DNA from: Candidatus Latescibacterota bacterium
GTDB taxonomy: Bacteria; Latescibacterota; UBA2968; GCA-2709665
Direction: 5' to 3'
Length of the DNA stretch: 64,000 bases
NCBI GenBank assembly: GCA_963662665.2
Contig: CAXXJS010000028.1
Location: forward strand, 96,001 to 160,000
Part shown: piece after piece, positions 4,640-59,168 of the stretch
Numbering within the stretch: position 1 is the first letter of the stretch
Layout: each line of letters opens with the position of its first letter
Program-made: the position numbers and the translations under genes
The notes under the pieces: generated by a model
Told to the model about the DNA's origin: nothing
Seen by the model: the letters and a program-made list of their open reading frames with translations, nothing else
Database searches by the model: none

Positions 4640-4790
4640 AAAAACCACATCTCCCCAGATTCCCTGCCTACGGCGTGTTCCTTGAAACCGGGGAGACGTG
4701 AGATGAAAGAGGGTAGAGATTACCTGCCTCGTGAGGTCTCTTTTCGCGCCGGAGGCAGGTTCTCCACGCTCTATAGTACAACATCTCTAT
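4640..4790 (-). repeat. Degenerate copy of the heptamer-ended miniature element
   Basis: Collinear with 52650-52770 (catctcccc..attccctgcct..gggtagagatt.cctgcct.gtgaggt...gccggaggca) and reverse complement of 11756-11826. Confidence 0.75.
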
Positions 4791-11648: not shown

Positions 11649-11826
11649 CCCCCTCTCCCTTCGGAGAGGGGGTCGGGGGGAGAGGTCTCCTAAAGGCGGT
11701 AAGAAGGTAGAGGGAAGACGGTAGAAGAAATTCTTGCCAGGTATGTTATTCCACTTTGCCTCCGGCACGACAAGAAGCCTCACAAGGCAGGAAATCTCTA
11801 CCCTCTCCCGTCTCACGTCTCACCGC
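11649..11826 (+). repeat. Mosaic repeat: CCCTCTCCC..GGAGAGGGGGTCGGGGG palindrome joined to a heptamer-ended miniature element
   Basis: Similar blocks occur at 44013-44265 and 46224-46413. Ends in ctcaccgc. Confidence 0.8.
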
Positions 11827-18429: not shown

Positions 18430-18928
18430 TTCGTCATTCGGAGCGAACTTGCAGAGTGCGCGGACGTGCCGCCTGCCAGGTCGGGCTCAGTGCCATAAGC
18501 TCGGGGATCAAGCCATGCTGCAGTAGATCCTTCGTCAGCCAGCCTGCCGGTGACTCTCTGGCAGGCAGGGAGGCTTCCTCAGGATGGCAGTTTGGGCGAG
18601 CGGGCGACGGATACGTTTCGCCAACGGCTATTGCAACGCATGTCATTCTGAGCGCAGCGAAGAATCTCCCGTCTTCTCGGCTTGCCGTGCAGCGGAAGCA
18701 TTCAACAACCCATATGCGCGGAGGCTTCGTTTCCATGACGGCTTCCTCAGGATGGCAGTTTGGGCGAGCAGGCGACGGATACTTTTCGCCAACGGCTATT
18801 GCAACGCATGTCATTCTGAGCGCAGCGAAGAATCTAACGTCTTCCGCACTGTCCAAATGTCAGAGATCCGGGTAAAACCATATGCGCGGACACATCATCT
18901 ATGAATCCAATCCGCGAGGAGTCGACTG
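18430..18928. repeat. BIME-like mosaic spacer S0 (two 168-bp units)
   Basis: ggcttcctcaggatg at 18572 and 18740. tgtcattctgagcgcagcgaagaatct at 18641 and 18809. Confidence 0.9.
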
Positions 18929-39680: not shown

Positions 39681-41126
39681 ATGATGGAAGAGCAAAAACC
39701 AAAGAAGGAAGAGGGACGCGTGTTGCGGTTGAATCGAGCGGGTACGGCGTCTGATCGGCAGGCTTCCGATCGGGAGGCGTCTCAAGGTCCGGCGGACTCC
39801 GTTGGCGGAGATAAACCGGTTCCCGGGTTTGTGAATCCCGGTACTTCCGCGTCTGTACGGGAGACACCAACCGAGGGCATGGACCGCAGGATCCGGAAGA
39901 AGCTGTGGACGCCGAAGCGCATCATCAGTTTCGCCGCGATCGCAGGCTTTGTGGGCTTGGTGGTCTACATGGCCATATTCGGCGACCACAGCGCCAGGCT
40001 CAACGTGCAGGTCGAGCGAATCACGATATCTGAAGTCACCATCGGTCCCTTCCAGGAGTTCATCCCCCAGCGCGGCACGGTGATGCCCATTCAGACCCAC
40101 TATCTGGACGCGCTGGAAGGCGGGCAGGTGGAGGAGATTTTCCTTGAAGTGGGGGCGATGGTCGAACGGGGTACGCCAATCCTGCGGATGTCGAACCCCA
40201 CGCTTGAACAGACCGTATTGAGCCAGGAAGCCCAGTTGTTCGAGCAGATCAACAGAATGGAAAACACACGGTTGAACCAGGAAATCCAGGATATCCAGCG
40301 AAAACGCTCACTGATGGACATCGAACTGGAACTGCAAAGGTCGGAACGCGAATTTCTGAGGCAGAAAGCGCTATTCGAACGAAATTTCACGTCTCGAGAA
40401 AAATTCCTTTCGGCAGAAGACAGTTACAATCATGCCCAAAAGCTCAGGGTATTTATGCTGGAGACGGTCAGACGCGACTCACTGTATCGAATCAATGAAC
40501 TGGCTGCCCTGCAGAAGCGCGCGCGCAGCCTGCAGCTTCAACTGGATGACGTGCGCCGTCCATTGAGAAACCTGACCGTGCGTGCGCCGATCGACGGTCA
40601 ATTGTCCCAGCTCAACGCCGAAATCGGCAAGTTGATCGCGAAGGGGACCAGCATCGGCCAGATCGACGTTCTGGACGCCTACAAGATGCGTGCGGCCATC
40701 GATGAATTCTACATTACGAGAATTACAGCGGGACTCAGAGGGACGATTGAAATCGACGAACAGACATTCGAATTGAAAATCCGCCGGGTTTTTCCCGAGG
40801 TAAGGGAGGGGCAGTTCGAGGTAGACATGGATTTCACAGGCGATGCGCCGCGAAGCATCCGCCGCGGGCAGACCGAGCAGATTCGACTGGAGCTGGACGC
40901 GCCCGAAGAAGCGTTGCTGTTGCCGAGGGGCGGTTTCTATCAGACCACCGGCGGCAACTGGGTCTTCGTGGTGGAGGGCGACCTGGCCGTACGGCGCGAC
41001 GTCCGCATCGGACGCCAGAATCCGGAGTATTTCGAAGTGCTCGAGGGACTGGCTCCGGGAGAACGCGTTGTGACGTCGTCATACGAAAATTATGAGGATA
41101 TAGATAAGCTGGTATTAAATCGGTGA
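39681..41126 (+). CDS. Efflux periplasmic adaptor subunit (MacA/HlyD family)
   Basis: Single TM anchor, EGGQVEEI lipoyl half, coiled coil, VRAPIDG, and GL..GERVVTS. Alternative start is 39879. Confidence 0.93.
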   Translation: MMEEQKPKKEEGRVLRLNRAGTASDRQASDREASQGPADSVGGDKPVPGFVNPGTSASVRETPTEGMDRRIRKKLWTPKRIISFAAIAGFVGLVVYMAIFGDHSARLNVQVERITISEVTIGPFQEFIPQRGTVMPIQTHYLDALEGGQVEEIFLEVGAMVERGTPILRMSNPTLEQTVLSQEAQLFEQINRMENTRLNQEIQDIQRKRSLMDIELELQRSEREFLRQKALFERNFTSREKFLSAEDSYNHAQKLRVFMLETVRRDSLYRINELAALQKRARSLQLQLDDVRRPLRNLTVRAPIDGQLSQLNAEIGKLIAKGTSIGQIDVLDAYKMRAAIDEFYITRITAGLRGTIEIDEQTFELKIRRVFPEVREGQFEVDMDFTGDAPRSIRRGQTEQIRLELDAPEEALLLPRGGFYQTTGGNWVFVVEGDLAVRRDVRIGRQNPEYFEVLEGLAPGERVVTSSYENYEDIDKLVLNR

Positions 41127-41745
41127 GAAGTGAGCCGGGAGACGGGAGAAGAAAAACCTGAAAGCGGGGAGCCGTGAGCCGGGAGACGGGAGAAGAAAAA
41201 CCTGAAAGCGGGGAGCCGTGAGCCGGGAGACGGGAGAGGAAAGACCTTGCCACCTGATGCGGCGCCAAACCCTTATAGGATAGGTACAAACACGATGATG
41301 GAACTCAGCCACAAGAAGCTTGTAGTATGGAAAAAGAGCATCGAACTGGTGAACGAGATATATACCCTGACCGCCAAGTTTCCTTCCGCCGAGCTCCATG
41401 GCATTACCAGCCAGCTACGGCGATCTGCTGTCTCAATACCGTCTAACATCGCCGAGGGATCAGCAAGAACTTCGAATACTGAACGCAGAAGATTTCTCGA
41501 AATAGCCAGGAGTTCGTTGGTTGAGTTGGATACTCAACTTGAAATAGCACTAAACCTCCAATTGTGTTCGGACGACGACGTTCAGTCAATATCAGAAACG
41601 ATGAATCGATTGTTTGGTTTGCTGTCAGGATTGATTAGTAGAGTTTCCTCGTAACCCGTGCCGGGTCCTTAGCCATTTTTGTTACGGCTAATAAAACGAG
41701 CGGGCACTCATATCCTCTCCCGTCTAACGTCTTCCGTCTAACTTC
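41121..41745 (+). mobile_element. Putative repeat-bounded cassette carrying a four-helix-bundle gene
   Basis: Left end is a 44-bp tandem unit (41130, 41174, 41218) rich in GAGACGG. Right end ctctcccgtctaacgtcttccgtct is the inverted heptamer array. No transposase is seen. Confidence 0.55.
41295..41654 (+). CDS. Four helix bundle protein (23S rRNA IVP / Avd-like family)
   Basis: HKKLVVWKKS, FPSAELHGITSQLRRSAVSIPSNIAEG and FLEIARSSLVELDTQL motifs. More AT-rich than its neighbours. Confidence 0.93.
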   Translation: MMELSHKKLVVWKKSIELVNEIYTLTAKFPSAELHGITSQLRRSAVSIPSNIAEGSARTSNTERRRFLEIARSSLVELDTQLEIALNLQLCSDDDVQSISETMNRLFGLLSGLISRVSS

Positions 41746-41750
41746 GGAAA

Positions 41751-42135
41751 GAGGTGAGCCGGGAGAGGGTAGAGGAAAAACCTGAAAGCGGGGAGCCGTG
41801 AGCCGGGAGACGGGAGAAGACATCCTTGCCCGATTGGTTCATCCTTTATGCCACCGGCAAGAAATGAAACCGCACGGGGCAGGCAATCTCTCCCCGCTTC
41901 CGTCTAACGTCTTACCCCGGGTGAGGTGGCCGGGGGGCGGGAGAGGAAAGACCTTGCCATCTGATGCGGCGCCAGGTCAAAAAGGATAGAGAGGGAACGC
42001 CGTGTTGAAACTTTCGCGTCATGATTTTGAAATTGACAAAAGCGTTTCACCTTAACCCGTGCCGCTTCAGTAGCCATTATTATTGCGGCCAATAAAACGG
42101 ACGGGCACTCATATCATCTCCCGTCTCCCGTCTAC
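41751..42135 (+). repeat. Miniature element (41751-41915) plus gene-less copy of the four-helix cassette (41919-42135)
   Basis: 41938-41975 repeats 41232-41268, and 42054-42135 repeats 41653-41730. Only about 80 bp separate them, in place of the gene. Confidence 0.85.
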
Positions 42136-42156
42136 CCTTTTTATAGGAGTTTCGAG

Positions 42157-42846
42157 ATGATCAAGACTGTGGATTTACAGAAGGTTTACCGTACAGAAGA
42201 GGTCGAAACCACCGCGCTCCGAAACGTCAACCTGGAGATCAGTGAAGGCGAGTTCGTTGCGGTGATGGGGCCGTCGGGTTGCGGCAAGTCCACGCTGCTG
42301 AACGTGCTGGGGTTGCTGGATAACCCGACCGATGGAGAATACTATCTGAACGACGTGGAGGTATCGAAACACACGGAGCGGCAGAGAGCCGATGCGCGAA
42401 AGGCGAATATCGGGTTCGTGTTTCAGAGTTTCAATCTGATCGACGAGCTGACCGTGGCCGAGAATATCGAGCTGCCGCTCCTGTACCTCAAGATGCCGTC
42501 CAAAGAACGCAGGAAACGCGTGGACGAGTCGATGGAGTATATGGGCATCAAACACCGCGAGAAACACTTCCCGCAGCAGTTGTCAGGCGGCCAACAGCAG
42601 CGCGTTGCCGTGGCGCGGGCGGTTATCTCGAATCCGAATATTATCCTCGCGGATGAGCCCACCGGGAACCTGGACTCCGCCAACGGCAATGAAGTCATGG
42701 GATTGCTGACGGAGTTGAATAAGAACGGGACGACCATCGTCATGGTCACGCACAAAGCCCACGACGCGGGATTCGCCCATCGCGTCGTTCACCTGTTCGA
42801 CGGCCACGTGGTATCCGAGAATATCAGAGAACAGGCGCCGAATTAG
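42157..42846 (+). CDS. ABC transporter ATP-binding protein (MacB/LolD family)
   Basis: GPSGCGKS, FVFQSFNLI, LSGGQQQR, ILADEPTGNLD and VTH. AGGAG SD. Confidence 0.97.
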   Translation: MIKTVDLQKVYRTEEVETTALRNVNLEISEGEFVAVMGPSGCGKSTLLNVLGLLDNPTDGEYYLNDVEVSKHTERQRADARKANIGFVFQSFNLIDELTVAENIELPLLYLKMPSKERRKRVDESMEYMGIKHREKHFPQQLSGGQQQRVAVARAVISNPNIILADEPTGNLDSANGNEVMGLLTELNKNGTTIVMVTHKAHDAGFAHRVVHLFDGHVVSENIREQAPN

Positions 42847-43980: not shown

Positions 43981-44265
43981 GGGAAGACGTTAGAAGGAAG
44001 AACCTGAAAGCGGTGAGACGTGAGCCGGTAGACGGTAGAAGAGGTCCGTGCCCGATCGGTTCTTCCTTTTTATGCGACCGGCAAGAAATGAAACCGAACG
44101 GGGCAGGCGATTTCTACCCTCTTTCGTCTAACGTCTTCCCGCCTTTAGGAGACCTACCCCTTTCCCGGTTCCTGAAAGGGGGGAACTTACATCGCTTGAT
44201 GTATACCTGGTTCTGCTCCCCCTCTCCCCTTGGGAGAGGGGGTCGGGGGGTGAGGGTCTCCCCGC
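43981..44265 (+). repeat. Heptamer-ended miniature element plus CCCTCTCCC/GGGAGAGGGG palindrome
   Basis: Core tgcccgatcggtt..tatgcgaccggcaagaaatgaaaccg..ggggcaggc is shared with 41827-41890 and 46322-46385. Confidence 0.85.
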
Positions 44266-46229: not shown

Positions 46230-46413
46230 GGGTCTCCCCCTTTCCTTTAGGAGAGGGGGCCGGGGGGAGAGGTCGCGAAAAAGAGGTGAGACGGTAGAGG
46301 TGAGACGGTAGAAGACGTCTTTGCCCGATTGGATCTGCCTCTATGCCATCGGCAGGATATGAAACCGCCCGGGGCTGGTCATCTCTACCCTCTCCCGTCT
46401 TACGTCTCACCGC
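46224..46413 (+). repeat. Palindrome plus heptamer-ended miniature element between convergent genes
   Basis: gtgagacggtagag...ctctcccgtcttacgtctcaccgc. The terminus contains the stop codon of the minus-strand gene. Confidence 0.85.
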
Positions 46414-52599: not shown

Positions 52600-53172
52600 A
52601 GCAGCCTTTAGCGATCAGCTTTCAGTCAAAGTCAAGAGCTTAGATCAAAATCAACATCTCCCCAAATTCCCTGCCTCCGGCGGGTTCCATAAAACCGGGA
52701 AGACGGAAGACGGGAGAGGGTAGAGATTTCCTGCCTTGTGAGGTTTCTTTTGTTGCCGGAGGCAAGAAGGAGGAACCAATCGGGCAAAGACGTCATCTCA
52801 CGGCTCCCGTCTCACCGCCGTCAGGCGACCTGTCATGACATTGGAATTTCTTAGCAGTCTACGTACATAGAAGGTATTTCACCAAGCTCGACGTACTCAT
52901 CGTCCCGCCACAGGCATTCTCCGTGGCGAGTTTTTTCTTTGCGGCTGCCCTCGGTGCGCCGTCATCGAATTCGAAGGGCGACCGGCCGGTCGCCCCTACA
53001 AGAACCGCGAAATCGCGAATTGACATCGCCGTGTTTCGCGCCAACCTTGAATTCACAGGGGCAACCCTTGTGGTTGCCCACATTACGGCGCAGACATAGG
53101 TGAGTCGATTTCGATTGGCCATAACGTTAGCCTGGTTTAGCTGATGGCTGAAAACTGACGGCTGACCGCTGC
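52600..53172. repeat. Intergenic cluster of REP-like repeats (TCAGC-type heptamers at both ends in inverted orientation, miniature element 52695-52818, GTAG-type palindromes)
   Basis: tagcgatcagctttcag (about 52610) versus gctgatggctgaaaactgacggctgaccgct (about 53140). gggcgaccggccggtcgcccctac at 52976, also at about 59207. Confidence 0.75.
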
Positions 53173-53678: not shown

Positions 53679-56600
53679 ATGCGTCGTCTACATTCGTCCG
53701 AACGACGGTCGACCGGGAATGGAGCGAAATCGGCCTCGATATTCGCAGCCACGTCTCTCGCCGTGTTGATTGGCCTGGGAGCGCTCTATTCGCAGGCAAG
53801 TTTGCCGCATTCCGCCGGCTCACCGGATTTCGATGGGAATGGGACGGTCGGCTTCAGCGATTTCGTTCTGTTCGCCGAGGCATTCGGGTCCGATAAAGGG
53901 GCTACCGGATTTGATGCGCGGTACGATCTGGATGGGGATGGCGCCATCGGATTCCCCGATTTCGTGATCTTTGCGAGTCGTTTCGGCGAAAAGGTACCTG
54001 TTTCCGGCGGGGACCGGGATGCTCTGGTCGCGCTCTACAAGGCGACGGACGGTCCGAATTGGGAGAACAACGCCAACTGGTTGACGGAACAGGACCCTTC
54101 AACCTGGCATGGCGTCAGCCTTCACAACGGCCGGGTCACGGCTCTGGTTCTTGCCGAGAATAATCTGTCGGGCACGATACCGAGAGAGCTTGGACAACTC
54201 GCGGACCTCGAGTGGTTGAACCTCAGATGGAATGAATTGACCGGACCTATCCCAAAAGAACTGGGCCAACCCACCAACCTCACGCAATTGAGCCTAGAAT
54301 TGAATGAACTGACCGGACCGATTCCGTCGGAACTCGGTCGGCTCACCAGACTCACAAAGCTAGACCTTGGCTGGAATGAATTGACGGGATCCATCCCGAA
54401 GGAACTGGGTCGACTCACCGACCTCAAAGAGCTGGACCTTGGACTCAATCAATTGACCGGACCGATTCCGTCGGAACTAGTCCGACTTACCAACCTCACA
54501 GAGCTGGACCTTGCCAGGAATGAATTGACCGGACCTATCCCAAAGGAACTGGGTCAACTCACCAACCTCACTCGGTTGCGCCTTTACGGAAATGAGCTGA
54601 CGGGCACGATCCCTTCGGAACTCGGCCAGCTCACCAACCTCACAGAACTAGACCTTGAAAATAGTCAATTGACGGGACCGATCCCTGCGGAACTGGGCCA
54701 ACTCACCAACCTTACAGAGCTGGACCTTAGCGTTAATCGGTTGACGGGACCGATCCCTGCGGAACTGGGTCAACTCACCAACCTCACGAGGTTGATCCTT
54801 TACGGGAATCAGTTAACCGGGGGGATCCCCCCGGAGCTTGGCCGCCTTACCAAACTTCAGAATTTGAGTCTTACCAAGAATCAATTTAGTGGTGGGATTT
54901 CGCCAGAACTTGGAAAACTCACGAATCTACATTCGCTCTTTCTCTCGGACAACCCGCTGAACGGAACGATACCAAAGGAACTCGGACAACTAATCAACCT
55001 TGATTTACTCTACCTTTCGCGAAATAAGCTGACCGGTGAGATCCCCCCAGAACTTGGACAGTTGACGAATCTCACTGAATTGGCCCTCAGCTGGAATTCG
55101 TTGAATGGAGGGATCCCCCCAGAGCTTGGCCAACTCACCAATCTCAGGAGTTTGGATCTTTCGGTGAACTCACTGAATGGGCCGATCCCTGCCGAATTGG
55201 GTCAACTTACAAGGCTCAAGTATTTGAGACTATGGGTCAGTGGGTTGATCGGCGAGATCCCCCCAGAGCTTGGCCAACTCACCGAGCTAGAAACCCTGGA
55301 CCTTAGTTGGAATAACAATTTGACCGGTCCGATCCCGCCGGAATTGGGCAAACTATCCAAACTCAGGGTATTGGATCTTGATTTGAATGATTTGACGGGT
55401 TCGATACCAAGGGAACTGGGGCAACTTGCCGGCATAGAGTCGTTGGACTTGAGCGATAATGATTTGACGGGCCCAATCCCGTCAGAGCTTGGCCAAATTA
55501 CCTACCTTACACAGTTGCTCCTTAACTCGAACGATTTGACGGGCCCGATCCCCGCCGAACTGGCCCGGCTCACCAACCTCGAATTGTTATGGCTTGGCAA
55601 TAATCAGTTCGCGGGCCCGATCCCCCCGGAACTGGGCCAACTCACCAGCCTTACAGAACTGAAGCTTGGCGGTAATGAGTTGCTTGGAACAATCCCGCCG
55701 GAATTAGGCCAACTCACCAGCCTTACAGAACTGAAGCTTGGCGGTAATGAGTTGCTTGGAACAATCCCGCCGGAATTAGGCCAACTCACCAATCTCAGAA
55801 CACTATACCTCTATGGAAACGAAGAGCTGACCGGACCGTTGCCTCAGTCTTTCCTCGGTCTAGACCTGCGTCATTTCGAGTTTCAAGGCACACAGGTCTG
55901 CATACCTGCGACTGCGGAATTCCAGGAGTGGCTCGAGGGGATACCGGACAAAATAGTCACCGCTGAATGTGCCTTTCCGGAACGGGATGCTCTGGTCGCG
56001 CTCTACAACGGCGCGGATGGCCCCAACTGGACGAACAGGACCAACTGGTTGAGCACCCCAACCCTGGGCGAATGGTACGGCGTGACCGCCGATGCGGACG
56101 GGCACGTGACCAGACTTGACCTGCAGAAAAACAACCTGCGGGGAACGATACCTCACCAACTCGGACAGTTGACCCATCTCAATACGCTGAACCTCGCTTC
56201 AAACGCCGCGCTGTTGGGACCGGTGCCAGTCGGTCTCACACGTCTGTCCCTGGATTCCCTGGCTCTGGACGGAACACAATTGTGTGCGCCTCCGAGGACG
56301 GAATTCCAGACGTGGCTCAACAGGATACCGAACAGGACGGAAATAGACCGCTGTACCGACGCTCGCGCGGATTACTATGCTTTGGTGGAGTTGTACAACG
56401 GCACGGATGGATCGAACTGGAGGAATGCGACGAACTGGACGGGCAAAGCGCCGTTAGGCGATTGGTACGGCGTGACCACCGATGGCGGCGGACGGGTGAC
56501 CAGACTGGACCTGTATGAAAACAACCTGAGCGGAACGATACCTCGCCAACTGGGACAGTTGGCACATCTAACATTCCTCGACCTCGGAGATAATCAATTA

Positions 56601-59168
56601 ACGGGCGGCATTCCACCAGAGCTTGGACAGTTAACCAGACTCACCTATTTGAATCTGTTCGGGAATCAACTGACGGGCGGGATTCCGCCGGAACTTGGGC
56701 AACTCACAAACCTCACGTCCTTGACCCTTGCCGCGAGTGGGTTAACGGGGGAGATCCCACCGGAGCTTGGAAGGTTGACCAGTCTCGAAATGGTGCGTCT
56801 TGATGGAAACAGGTTTTCGGGCAAGATACCCGTGTCACTGGGGCAGTTGACCAATCTCAACCGCTTAAGCCTTACTGGTAACAGGTTAACGGGACGGATC
56901 CCGCCAGAGCTTGCACAACTCACGAATCTCGAATCGCTGGAACTTGGGAATAATCGGTTGACGGACGAGATACCCCCGGCACTCGGACGGTTGTCTGTTC
57001 TCCGAAATTTGTCCCTTAGTGGTAATGAGTTAACGGGAGGTATTCCACCGGAGCTTGGGCGTCTCACCAATGTCATACAACTGGGAATTGGCCACAACCA
57101 GTTGACGGGTGGGATTCCCACGGAATTGGGACGTCTGGCCGATCTTGGATGGTTGTTTCTTGACAATAACCAGTTAACCGGTGAGATACCTGCCGAAATG
57201 GGCCAGCTGACAAATCTCTGGGGGTTGTACATCGGCCACAACCAGCTGACGGGTGGGATACCCACCGAAATGGGACAGTTGGCTGATATCCATGAATTGT
57301 CCCTTAACAATAACCAGTTGACCGGTGAGATACCTGCCGACTTGGGAAAGCTGACCAATCTACAAAGATTGAATCTTTCCTCAAATCGGCTGTCCGGCAA
57401 GATCCCGGCGGAACTGGGGCAACTCATCTATCTCGAACAGTTGGACCTCAGCGTCAACCAGTTGTCCGGTGAGATACCTCCGGAACTGGGCAATCTCGGA
57501 AGCCTGCAATCGCTGGATCTCTCATTCAACGGCGCTCTGTCAGGGAGCCTTCCCCACACATTAACCAATCTAAGCCTGGAATCCTTGGGTTTGAAAGAAA
57601 CGCTCCTGTGTGTCCCGGAGGGAATCGAATTCCTGGCGTGGCTTGGTAGTATTCCGGACAGCCGTGTGCCGAACTGCGCCCGTATCGACATGTCAACCGT
57701 TTATCTGACGCAGGCGACACAGTCTCTCGAATATCCCGTGCCTCTGGTGGCCGGCGAGCCGGCACTCCTGCGCGTATTCGTCACCGCGGCGCAGGACGCG
57801 AATGCCACCATGCCCCCCGTGATGGCGACCTTCTACCTGGAAGACGCCGAGGTACATACTGCGGAAATCGAAGGCAAGGCGAACAGCATCCCGTGGCAGG
57901 TCAACCAGGCGTCATTGTTGAATTCGGCCAACGCGGTGGTGCCGGGCTCGTTGGTGATGCCGGGACTGGAGATGGTTGTGGAGATCGATCCGGACCGGAC
58001 GCTGGACCCGAGTCTGGGCATCGGCGCTCGATTGCCCGCGACGGGTCGGACTGCATTGGATGTGAGGTCCTTGCCACCGTTCGAACTGACGCTGGTCCCG
58101 TTTCTCTGGAGTGAGAATCCCGATAGTACCGTATTGACCGAAACTGAGGACCTGTCTTCCGAATCCGATCTGTTCCGGTTGACCCGCGACATTCTTCCAG
58201 TGAAAGACTTCAGATTGACCATCCACGAGCCCGTGTTGACTTCGGTGGATCCCACGGGAAACAATCACGAAACATTAATGCCTGGAATCGAGGTGATTTT
58301 TGCCATGGAAGGGAGGAAGGGGCATTATATGGGCGTCGTCAGAGAGACTGACGAGGATGGCGTACAAGTGCGAGGGATAGCACAGTTACCCGGATACGTA
58401 AGTCTGTCCATCCTCGACGGAAACGTCATCGCGCACGAACTTGGGCACAACCTGAATCTCTATCACGCCCCCGGGTGCGGCACAATTGGTACCGATCCCG
58501 ATTTTCCGACGGAGGACGGATCCATCGGCGCGTGGGGGTACGATTTCCTCAATGAAACTCTTGTGAATCCCGAAACGTCGGACCTGATGTCGTACTGCTG
58601 GCCACAGTGGATCAGCGAGTTCAGTTTTTCCAGGGCGCTACGCCATCGCTACCATGAAACAGGCAGGCGTGAGGCAGCGGCCTACACAGGTTCGACAAGG
58701 GGCTTGTTGCTGTGGGGCGGCATGAACGGCGACAAGGAGCTATTCCTCGAACCGGCGTTCGTGGTCAGCGCCCCGCCTTCTCCACCGCGGATGGACGGTC
58801 CGTACCGGCTCACGGGAGAGGCTGAAGACGGAAGCACCGTATTCGACGTGGCATTCGGTATGGCCGAGATCGCGTGCGGCGGCACGGGCGGCGCCTTCGC
58901 TTTCATTCTTCCCGTGCAGCCTGACTGGTCAGCCAGGCTGGCTCGCGTTACGCTCTCAGGCCATGAAGGCGTCTCGACGCTGGACGGCGAGGAGGGCGCC
59001 GCCGCCGCGCTGCTGCTGGACCGCTCAACAGGAAATGTCCTTGGTATCCTGCGAGACTGGTCAGAGCCGGCCGCGAAACGGGCCGCCGCCAGCCTTGGGC
59101 TGCCGGAACCGGACCTGGAGGTCCTCGTCAGCCGCGGCATCCCGGATGCGGCCTCGTGGACGCGATGA
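53679..59168 (+). CDS. Giant secreted protein: dockerin/EF-hand, three capped plant-type LRR solenoids, C-terminal metzincin (M66-like) protease
   Basis: DFDGNGTVGFSDF / DLDGDGAIGFPDF, about 41 24-aa repeats LxGxIPxELGxLxxLxxLxLxxN, HELGHNLNLYH and Met-turn DLMSYC. Confidence 0.93.
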   Translation: MRRLHSSERRSTGNGAKSASIFAATSLAVLIGLGALYSQASLPHSAGSPDFDGNGTVGFSDFVLFAEAFGSDKGATGFDARYDLDGDGAIGFPDFVIFASRFGEKVPVSGGDRDALVALYKATDGPNWENNANWLTEQDPSTWHGVSLHNGRVTALVLAENNLSGTIPRELGQLADLEWLNLRWNELTGPIPKELGQPTNLTQLSLELNELTGPIPSELGRLTRLTKLDLGWNELTGSIPKELGRLTDLKELDLGLNQLTGPIPSELVRLTNLTELDLARNELTGPIPKELGQLTNLTRLRLYGNELTGTIPSELGQLTNLTELDLENSQLTGPIPAELGQLTNLTELDLSVNRLTGPIPAELGQLTNLTRLILYGNQLTGGIPPELGRLTKLQNLSLTKNQFSGGISPELGKLTNLHSLFLSDNPLNGTIPKELGQLINLDLLYLSRNKLTGEIPPELGQLTNLTELALSWNSLNGGIPPELGQLTNLRSLDLSVNSLNGPIPAELGQLTRLKYLRLWVSGLIGEIPPELGQLTELETLDLSWNNNLTGPIPPELGKLSKLRVLDLDLNDLTGSIPRELGQLAGIESLDLSDNDLTGPIPSELGQITYLTQLLLNSNDLTGPIPAELARLTNLELLWLGNNQFAGPIPPELGQLTSLTELKLGGNELLGTIPPELGQLTSLTELKLGGNELLGTIPPELGQLTNLRTLYLYGNEELTGPLPQSFLGLDLRHFEFQGTQVCIPATAEFQEWLEGIPDKIVTAECAFPERDALVALYNGADGPNWTNRTNWLSTPTLGEWYGVTADADGHVTRLDLQKNNLRGTIPHQLGQLTHLNTLNLASNAALLGPVPVGLTRLSLDSLALDGTQLCAPPRTEFQTWLNRIPNRTEIDRCTDARADYYALVELYNGTDGSNWRNATNWTGKAPLGDWYGVTTDGGGRVTRLDLYENNLSGTIPRQLGQLAHLTFLDLGDNQLTGGIPPELGQLTRLTYLNLFGNQLTGGIPPELGQLTNLTSLTLAASGLTGEIPPELGRLTSLEMVRLDGNRFSGKIPVSLGQLTNLNRLSLTGNRLTGRIPPELAQLTNLESLELGNNRLTDEIPPALGRLSVLRNLSLSGNELTGGIPPELGRLTNVIQLGIGHNQLTGGIPTELGRLADLGWLFLDNNQLTGEIPAEMGQLTNLWGLYIGHNQLTGGIPTEMGQLADIHELSLNNNQLTGEIPADLGKLTNLQRLNLSSNRLSGKIPAELGQLIYLEQLDLSVNQLSGEIPPELGNLGSLQSLDLSFNGALSGSLPHTLTNLSLESLGLKETLLCVPEGIEFLAWLGSIPDSRVPNCARIDMSTVYLTQATQSLEYPVPLVAGEPALLRVFVTAAQDANATMPPVMATFYLEDAEVHTAEIEGKANSIPWQVNQASLLNSANAVVPGSLVMPGLEMVVEIDPDRTLDPSLGIGARLPATGRTALDVRSLPPFELTLVPFLWSENPDSTVLTETEDLSSESDLFRLTRDILPVKDFRLTIHEPVLTSVDPTGNNHETLMPGIEVIFAMEGRKGHYMGVVRETDEDGVQVRGIAQLPGYVSLSILDGNVIAHELGHNLNLYHAPGCGTIGTDPDFPTEDGSIGAWGYDFLNETLVNPETSDLMSYCWPQWISEFSFSRALRHRYHETGRREAAAYTGSTRGLLLWGGMNGDKELFLEPAFVVSAPPSPPRMDGPYRLTGEAEDGSTVFDVAFGMAEIACGGTGGAFAFILPVQPDWSARLARVTLSGHEGVSTLDGEEGAAAALLLDRSTGNVLGILRDWSEPAAKRAAASLGLPEPDLEVLVSRGIPDAASWTR

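Follow-up and report, generated by a model that had tools for sequence, protein, structure and literature searches.

The closest described relatives of the element discussed here are the intervening sequences (IVSs) of 23S rRNA. In the part of PMC4990558 that we draw on, the Coxiella IVS is given as 428 nt long, situated in helix 45 of the 23S rRNA, with an S23p open reading frame (ORF), a 28-bp terminal stem that is cut by RNase III, and an AG-rich stretch plus two to three tandem heptamers (GACAGAT) upstream of the ORF. The same part records decay of the ORF in some strains and an older idea of the IVS as a mobile element. Here, we describe a block of heptamer-armed elements that resembles such IVSs in anatomy but lies between two protein-coding genes of a Candidatus Latescibacterota bacterium. 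It occupies positions 41121-42136 of a 64,000-nt stretch (hereafter “the window”; GenBank assembly GCA_963662665.2, contig CAXXJS010000028.1, positions 96,001 to 160,000, forward strand), between an HlyD-family adaptor gene and an ATP-binding cassette (ABC) ATPase gene (Table 1). The block is an array of three related elements: a full cassette carrying a four-helix-bundle gene of the PF05635 family, a mini hairpin, and a gene-less copy of the cassette. We read it as an rRNA-IVS-type selfish cassette in an operon spacer, accompanied by its non-autonomous derivatives, and give this reading a probability of about 0.7.

To our knowledge, both the gene-bearing IVSs of rRNA and the excess of heptamer repeats in bacteria have stood unexplained for decades, and we know of no established function for PF05635/TIGR02436, a very large protein family. 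The present locus ties all three together. Full, internally deleted, and mini copies of one family stand side by side in it, the deleted form is dispersed over further loci and species, and a site that is empty in three species of the sister genus has been refilled by two cassette families in closely related species; none of this evidence could come from a single cassette. The simplest model is limited by arrays that thrive in genomes without a four-helix gene. A full-text search of the literature outside subscription journals found nothing that links PF05635 proteins to heptamer-armed cassettes outside rRNA.

Comparison with Known Systems

The likeness to the 23S rRNA IVSs (Coxiella burnetii helix 45, Leptospira, and others), as far as the available part of the source describes them, extends to a sense S23p/PF05635 gene looped out by a long stem of paired terminal inverted repeats, a purine-rich 5' part, tandem heptamers of variable number, the lack of a transposase, and copies with ORF decay or internal deletion. 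The differences are that the cassette here lies between protein-coding operon genes and not in an rRNA helix (no Rfam family reaches its gathering score in the window, with chance-level matches only in 40900-42300), that gene-less derivatives are dispersed about 60 times, and that the arms are tandemly duplicated. In addition, the terminal stem is cut by RNase III in the rRNA IVSs, and the same excision is putative here.

Three further systems bear comparison. As with MITEs (miniature inverted-repeat transposable elements) and their autonomous parents, full and internally deleted copies share terminal inverted repeats of ~30 nt, and there are many dispersed intergenic copies with nested or adjacent insertions; unlike those parents, the full element encodes no transposase, its terminal repeats are tandem heptamer units, and no target-site duplication was identified. 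Repetitive extragenic palindromic (REP) sequences and their hairpin-forming doublets (REPINs), which go with REP-associated tyrosine transposases (RAYTs), are likewise extragenic palindromes, repeated tens of times, with copies on either side of a single-copy gene. However, no Y1 transposase (PF01797) was found in this genome, and the arrays persist in genomes without the four-helix gene. The Avd proteins of diversity-generating retroelements belong to a distantly related four-helix-bundle fold family, but the protein here falls under the cut-off of the Avd model, and there is no reverse transcriptase and no template/variable repeat pair at the locus.

Abundant intergenic heptamer arrays have also been described in Xanthomonas and Nostoc. 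In the part of Rehm et al. 2015 (PMC4692102) consulted, their GGGNATC heptamer repeats are treated as quadruplex-forming, and Xanthomonas is credited with 70-75 heptamer arrays arranged as convergent pairs able to form stem-loops. The units of the present genome and its relatives are different (GAGACGG, GCTGAYN, and GAAGGAA), and neither “S23” nor “intervening” occurs in the text of PMC4692102.

Anatomy of the Block

A preliminary description of this DNA, made from the sequence alone, had seen a tandem left end, a core A, a four-helix-bundle ORF, a core B, and an inverted right end, and each of these is present where it was placed. The left end is a 44-bp tandem (41130-41247; 2.7 copies, 97% matches, score 222 in Tandem Repeats Finder [TRF]), whose unit joins an outer flank, AAACCTGAAAGCGG, to the purine-rich heptamers GTGAGCC GGGAGAC GGGAGAA; the same outer flank is found on many mini copies. 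The right arm of the full cassette reads TCTCCCG TCTAACG TCTTCCG TCT. When inverted, the right ends match the left arms over 27-30 nt at 73-78% (41713-41742) and over 20 nt at 90% (42114-42133). These terminal inverted repeats enclose the sense-oriented ORF, and the closing stem is present in the predicted fold of the full cassette.

Both cores recur in the gene-less copy. Core A (41236-41270) is repeated at 41943-41974 (96.9% over 32 nt in one comparison, 93% over 46 nt in another), and core B with the right end (41640-41735) at 42041-42136 (81% over 96 nt). Further copies of core A lie elsewhere in the genome, at C17:27833-27865, C17:5853-5882, and C8:40602-40630. The arms are overrepresented as well: the genome has 15 occurrences of the arm motif GGGAGACGGGAGA, where 0.3 would be expected, and 66 of GACGNNAGACGNNAGA, compared with 1 for the backwards control. 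The four-helix ORF has a GC content of 45.6%, compared with 56.5% and 56.4% in the neighboring genes, so the remark in the preliminary description that it is more AT-rich than its surroundings holds. The last right arm is closely followed by the ribosome-binding site of the ATPase gene (TAGGAG, 42146-42151), and a promoter and terminator search of the + strand found none.

The Four-Helix Gene

The full cassette has a single ORF, the PF05635 gene (E 3.3e-36; 124.2 bits, cut-off 33.8), which encodes a helical protein of 118 aa and no transposase. The protein also matches TIGR02436 (120.1 bits, cut-off 24) and, over residues 5-115, the solved structure of XCC0516 (2gsc_A; E 4.2e-29), an entry that comprises five chains. 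Profile searches for nuclease, recombinase, or polymerase domains found none in it. Because the orthologues begin with MELSHKK, the start codon is likely the second ATG, at 41298.

The ratio of nonsynonymous to synonymous substitution rates (dN/dS) was 0.10-0.33 in pairwise comparisons of eight type-1 genes, that is, this one and seven orthologues (27 pairs with dS above zero). By this measure the gene is under purifying selection, and we take its protein to be functional; its role may be to bind the arms, as DNA or RNA, or may have nothing to do with mobility.

The Gene-Less Copy and the Mini Hairpin

The preliminary description took the block for a full and an empty copy of one cassette, with about 80 bp in place of the gene in the second. 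The two do belong to one element family, and the ~80 bp are present, but they are what is left of the leader and of the ORF at its two ends; the second copy is an internal-deletion derivative, and the block has three elements rather than two. In order, the gene-less copy consists of a degenerate left arm, core A, a remnant of the leader and the 5' end of the ORF, a remnant of its 3' end, core B, and a right arm (42114-42136).

This form is not confined to the window. Eight gene-less copies from six genomes were aligned with the full copies found in G013 and in the present genome. Two of the eight come from the present genome (the one in the window and C8:40534-40800), two come from G013, and G002, G004, G014, and G011 contribute one each. 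Every one of them still has the arm and core A, the leader with ~20 nt from the start of the ORF, ~35 nt from its end, and core B with the right arm; each has lost ~300 nt of the ORF between nearly identical end points. The gene-less copy is therefore one non-autonomous form that several species share and that occupies more than a single locus, and not an empty cassette or an empty site. The earlier idea of a transposase-less insertion element in two forms is borne out, as the forms have arms, core A, leader, ORF ends, and core B in common.

The ~170 nt between the two copies (41746-41919) contain one more left-arm unit and a mini hairpin. The latter belongs to a family of 112-140-nt palindromic elements for which an iterated nhmmer search found 60 genomic loci, 49 of them near full length. 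Their arms are runs of heptamers (GAGACGG TAGAGGT GAGACGG TAGAAGA ... TCTCCCC TCTCCCG TCTTACG TCTCC), and their ends, AAAGCGG...CCGCTTT, are part of the palindrome. Since the inner end of core B of the cassette, GGGCACTCAYATC, is carried by 7 of the 49 near-full-length mini copies, and the hidden Markov model (HMM) of the mini family has a further match at the full cassette's right end (41693-41740), the mini form would be a further-shortened relative of the cassette.

The shorter forms give stable predicted hairpins. The mini element of the block is predicted to fold into a single long hairpin (-58.9 kcal/mol, z -2.96), which none of 200 shuffles equals, and the gene-less copy a closing stem of ~19 bp (z -2.24, 4 of 200 shuffles as good). 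RNAalifold found no conserved structure in core B across seven copies, a weak negative, as the anchor missed seven other copies. As terminators the mini hairpins were rejected: under a rough ORF model, 8 of the 47 classed copies lie in convergent spacers, compared with 322 of 1835 for all neighboring pairs.

At the level of sequence comparison, these results demonstrate the anatomy of the elements, the common descent of the full and deleted forms, and the dispersal of the deleted and mini forms. Five more mini copies, one of them partial, are intergenic in the window (4693-4758, 11710-11821, 44026-44137, 46297-46408, and 52700-52811).

History of the Site

Orthologues of the adaptor gene were found in 35 of 41 related genomes. 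In the sister genus, three of the five adaptor-ATPase spacers that were read are only 30, 31, and 49 nt long and contain a ribosome-binding site and nothing else; of the remaining two, one (288 nt) is taken up by a heptamer array of another kind and the other (2539 nt) by a permease gene. The preliminary description had held that the block interrupts two genes that are normally adjacent and had suggested a look at orthologous junctions, and the short sites of these three sister-genus species agree with it.

Of the 15 species of the genus, 13, among them the present one, have the two genes directly separated by 223-2741 nt of repeat elements. The contig of G003 stops after 1030 nt of repeat elements downstream of the adaptor gene, and one congener has a permease gene in the spacer; taken together, the spacer is filled by repeat elements in 14 of the 15 species. 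The very long spacers of G010 and G039 are due to an extra MacB-like permease gene, with no cassette array.

Two families of cassette fill these spacers. Type 1, the GAGACGG family, is found in eight, with an intact gene in four (89.7-100% amino-acid identity). Type 2, which has GCTGAYN arms and a different core, is found in six, and in five of these it comes with a four-helix gene of its own (42-45% identity). Both states are mixed within well-supported clades of the adaptor tree (for example, G004 with type 1 and G003 with type 2, support 94/86), and it follows that the site has been refilled or exchanged several times. Comparison of the genomes thus demonstrates gain and replacement at the adaptor-ATPase site among species.

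The type-2 core is conserved, ~170 nt long, and lies between GTCAGC-type and GCTGA-type arms (G009, G005, G008, G006, G003, and G001). It holds a ACGTCATT...AATGACGT inverted repeat, and the type-2 four-helix gene is positioned between complete elements and not inside one.

The type-1 cassette is found at other sites too: G010, G014, and G005 have it in the rpsR-rplI spacer, and G012 has it upstream of pth. The three rpsR-rplI spacers, a second recurrent site, contain a full type-1 cassette together with mini hairpins; in the present genome, the same spacer (C17:5803-6128) has a remnant consisting of an arm and core A. In G022, of the sister genus, the arm-pattern matches (GGGAGAC-type) are mostly direct arrays that flank a different small hairpin core, GGACAGGCCCCCGTGCCTGTCC.

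Other Four-Helix Cassettes

The preliminary description had suggested testing whether other four-helix genes carry the same ends. The two other PF05635 matches of this genome, one of them truncated, are on contig C40 and have no GAGACGG ends, but they are enclosed by analogous arms, in this case GAAGGAA-type purine arms and their complements (e.g., 41 nt at 85%). The region C40:104520-105660 reads as a full four-helix gene, a purine-loop-pyrimidine hairpin, a truncated and near-identical copy of the gene, and another hairpin, and this cassette lies directly upstream of a large helicase-like ORF.

The same packaging is seen far beyond the genus. With a single-protein query, we collected 80 loci of distant relatives (39-57% identity, many phyla), 76 of which were usable, and set the threshold at the 99th percentile of mismatched upstream/downstream pairs. 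Inverted complementarity between upstream and downstream flanks exceeded it in 44 of the 76 loci; among the controls, it did so for none of 73 shifted pseudo-genes and, in direct orientation, for 7 of the 76 loci. The arms of the 44 have a period of 7 in 32 cases and of 8 in nine. By this comparison of flanking sequences, the packaging of four-helix genes between inverted arms is general. The four-helix gene is co-oriented with both of its neighbors in 48 of 55 clearly called loci, using rough gene models. Arms as three-frame stops were tried and set aside, the signal being too weak (17/44 left arms, 11/44 right arms, 13/44 reversed).

A different arrangement was seen in G009, G024, and G026, where a CAGTGGT-armed four-helix cassette lies within what appears to be a single DNA-methylase-like ORF (...GEPDIS, cassette, VHGVDVFHPNTGE...). 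The four-helix gene is at about 1470-1850 of each locus, and genomes of two families have the cassette at the same point. The methylase-like gene is either split by the cassette or relieved of the insert at the RNA level.

How the Block May Have Formed

The following model would account for these observations. An array of three heptamer-armed hairpin elements would have been inserted into the spacer of a MacAB-like transporter operon. The full cassette would be of the 23S rRNA IVS type, with a purine-rich heptamer arm, a sense four-helix gene, and a complementary pyrimidine-rich arm; the gene-less copy would be its non-autonomous derivative, without ~300 nt of the ORF but with the arms and both cores, and the mini hairpin a still shorter form with about 60 genomic copies. 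The cassette would be carried in the host transcript, and its dependence on read-through transcription is suggested by the sense bias. The paired arms may form a long stem, of the kind that RNase III cuts in rRNA, which would allow the insertion to be tolerated between operon genes. New copies may land in or beside existing heptamer arms and so produce arrays and duplicated ends; this would account for the tandem arrangement of left ends here and of right ends in G013, and for the nested arrays. Movement would proceed through host recombination or replication functions, with no transposase encoded by the element.

Several points weigh against this model and should be kept in mind. Transcription through the block and cutting by RNase III are carried over by analogy, and mobility is inferred from comparing genomes, with no movement observed. 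The fold of the full cassette is no better than that of its shuffles (z -0.36, 8 of 20 as good), and only the closing stem is as predicted. Insertion boundaries and a target-site duplication are not definable, the intergenic DNA of the nearest genomes being too diverged. The turnover at the site could in part reflect homologous exchange of the whole locus between species, and not insertion. Finally, counts of heptamer patterns measure arms and not elements, and the comparison of gene presence among relatives leaves several PF05635 matches untyped.

The strongest competing explanation is that the four-helix protein binds the heptamer arms and mobilizes its own cassette and the gene-less copies in trans, which is the RAYT/REPIN analogy of the preliminary description. 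We consider this unlikely. In its favor, the relation of the full form to the deleted and mini forms is like that of an autonomous element to its MITEs, with the deleted forms keeping exactly the non-coding parts; the gene is under purifying selection; the cassette families at the site differ from one another in heptamer and in protein type alike; within the genus, GCTGA-pattern matches number 115-216 in five genomes with a type-2 gene and 17-118 in ten without, these genomes being kin and not independent; and a ring form is stated, in the part of PMC4990558 consulted, for the relative that was deposited as five chains. However, the protein has no recognizable catalytic domain, covariation of gene and arm is expected from simple linkage, and within the genus the counts of the type-1 pattern show full overlap, at 48-618 where the type-1 gene is present and 35-245 where it is absent. 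The closed genome of G022, which is 98% complete, has 1060 GACGNNAGACGNNAGA matches, and PF05635 was not found in it, nor in G034 (357 matches) or G004 (124). Because heptamer arrays abound in genomes without a four-helix gene, a RAYT-like role of the protein is not supported.

A bolder version makes the full cassette the master copy of a transposase-less mobile class, whose Avd-like ring protein would recognize its own arms, as DNA or as an RNA stem, and recruit host enzymes. The deleted and mini forms would be served in trans, and bacterial heptamer arrays would be landing pads or relics. We regard this proposal as speculative and doubtful at present. The two families that occupy the adaptor-ATPase site have different proteins and so amount to a natural specificity-swap pair.

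A common trans factor was also sought, and neither Y1 transposase nor reverse transcriptase is present in all array-rich genomes. Matches to PF01797 number 0 in this genome, G012, and G034, and are present in G011 and G022.

Alternatively, the hairpins could serve the host as selected operon punctuation (processing, stability, or attenuation), with the four-helix gene as a passenger. Stable hairpins in the mini and deleted forms, the sense orientation between co-directional genes in most distant loci, and the occupation of the same two operon spacers in many congeners would all suit such a role. It sits poorly with a site that is short and hairpin-free in three sister-genus species, with spacer content that is entirely different between close species, with the lack of any terminator-like site on the + strand or any Rfam family match, and with mini copies that show no preference for gene ends (15 in divergent, 24 in co-directional, and 8 in convergent spacers, under the rough ORF model). 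On balance, we find it improbable.

An assembly artefact, that is, a duplication from a collapsed or mis-joined repeat, is very improbable: although no public contig bridges 41160-41207 or 41805-41864, contigs of two studies reproduce 40700-41159, 41208-41804, and 41865-42500, and with them both copies, with zero differences, the full and gene-less copies differ by 15-19%, the full copy is contiguous with the next arm and the deleted copy with the ATPase gene, and similar arrays are present in closed congener genomes. The question of misassembly, raised in the preliminary description, is therefore answered favorably for each piece, but because no contig bridges either gap, the number of tandem units and the way in which the three pieces are ordered are taken from this assembly only.

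Equally hard to credit is an orphan Avd gene from a diversity-generating retroelement, in which case the repeats would be template/variable repeats in decay: PF05635 has been reported as Avd-like (PMC10053308, in the part consulted) and the protein has a weak similarity to the Avd model NF033474 (E 8e-4), but its 19.6 bits are far under the cut-off of 80, the repeats are heptamer arms rather than a template/variable pair, no reverse transcriptase is near (the genome's three RVT_1 matches are on contigs C24, C61, and C16), and RVT_1 matches are zero in G012 and G022.

Feature Coordinates and Other Observations

The features of the junction are collected in Table 1. Upstream of the adaptor gene are genes for a MacB-type permease and an extracytoplasmic function (ECF) sigma factor.

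Table 1. Features at the adaptor-ATPase junction, in window coordinates
Feature	Position	Strand	Basis
HlyD-family periplasmic adaptor gene, upstream neighbor	39681..41126	+	Pfam HlyD_3 E 1.4e-13, HlyD_D23
Left arm array, 44-bp unit x2.7	41121..41247	+	TRF period 44, 97% matches; repeat families D1, D2
Core A (41236-41270) and leader reaching the start codon	41236..41294	+	Aligns across all full and deleted copies
Four-helix-bundle gene, PF05635/TIGR02436	41295..41654	+	Profile matches, orthologue dN/dS
Core B (to about 41712) and pyrimidine-rich right arm	41655..41745	+	Repeat comparison; mini-family HMM match 41693-41740
Additional left-arm unit	41746..41803	+	Third copy of repeat D2, 41744-41820, 92%
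Mini hairpin	41786..41925	+	nhmmer 41804-41913, E 2.7e-29
Internal-deletion derivative of the cassette	41919..42136	+	Aligned with full copies and 7 other deleted copies
ABC transporter ATPase gene, downstream neighbor	42157..42846	+	Pfam ABC_tran E 2.3e-36

One sequencing run that contains part of the stretch is labelled as a sponge metagenome, and a search for runs containing the stretch turned up no RNA run. The reverse-transcriptase ORFs of this genome, each of 463 aa (C24:9048-9713, C61:81626-82291, and C16:124715-125380), have near-identical scores, are unlinked to the cassette, and are probably copies of one retroelement. Elsewhere in the window there is a 168-nt tandem repeat (x1.9) at 18572-18890, and the long arrays of a 72-nt unit at 54227-57361 are, judging from the repeat length, probably coding repeats of the leucine-rich type.

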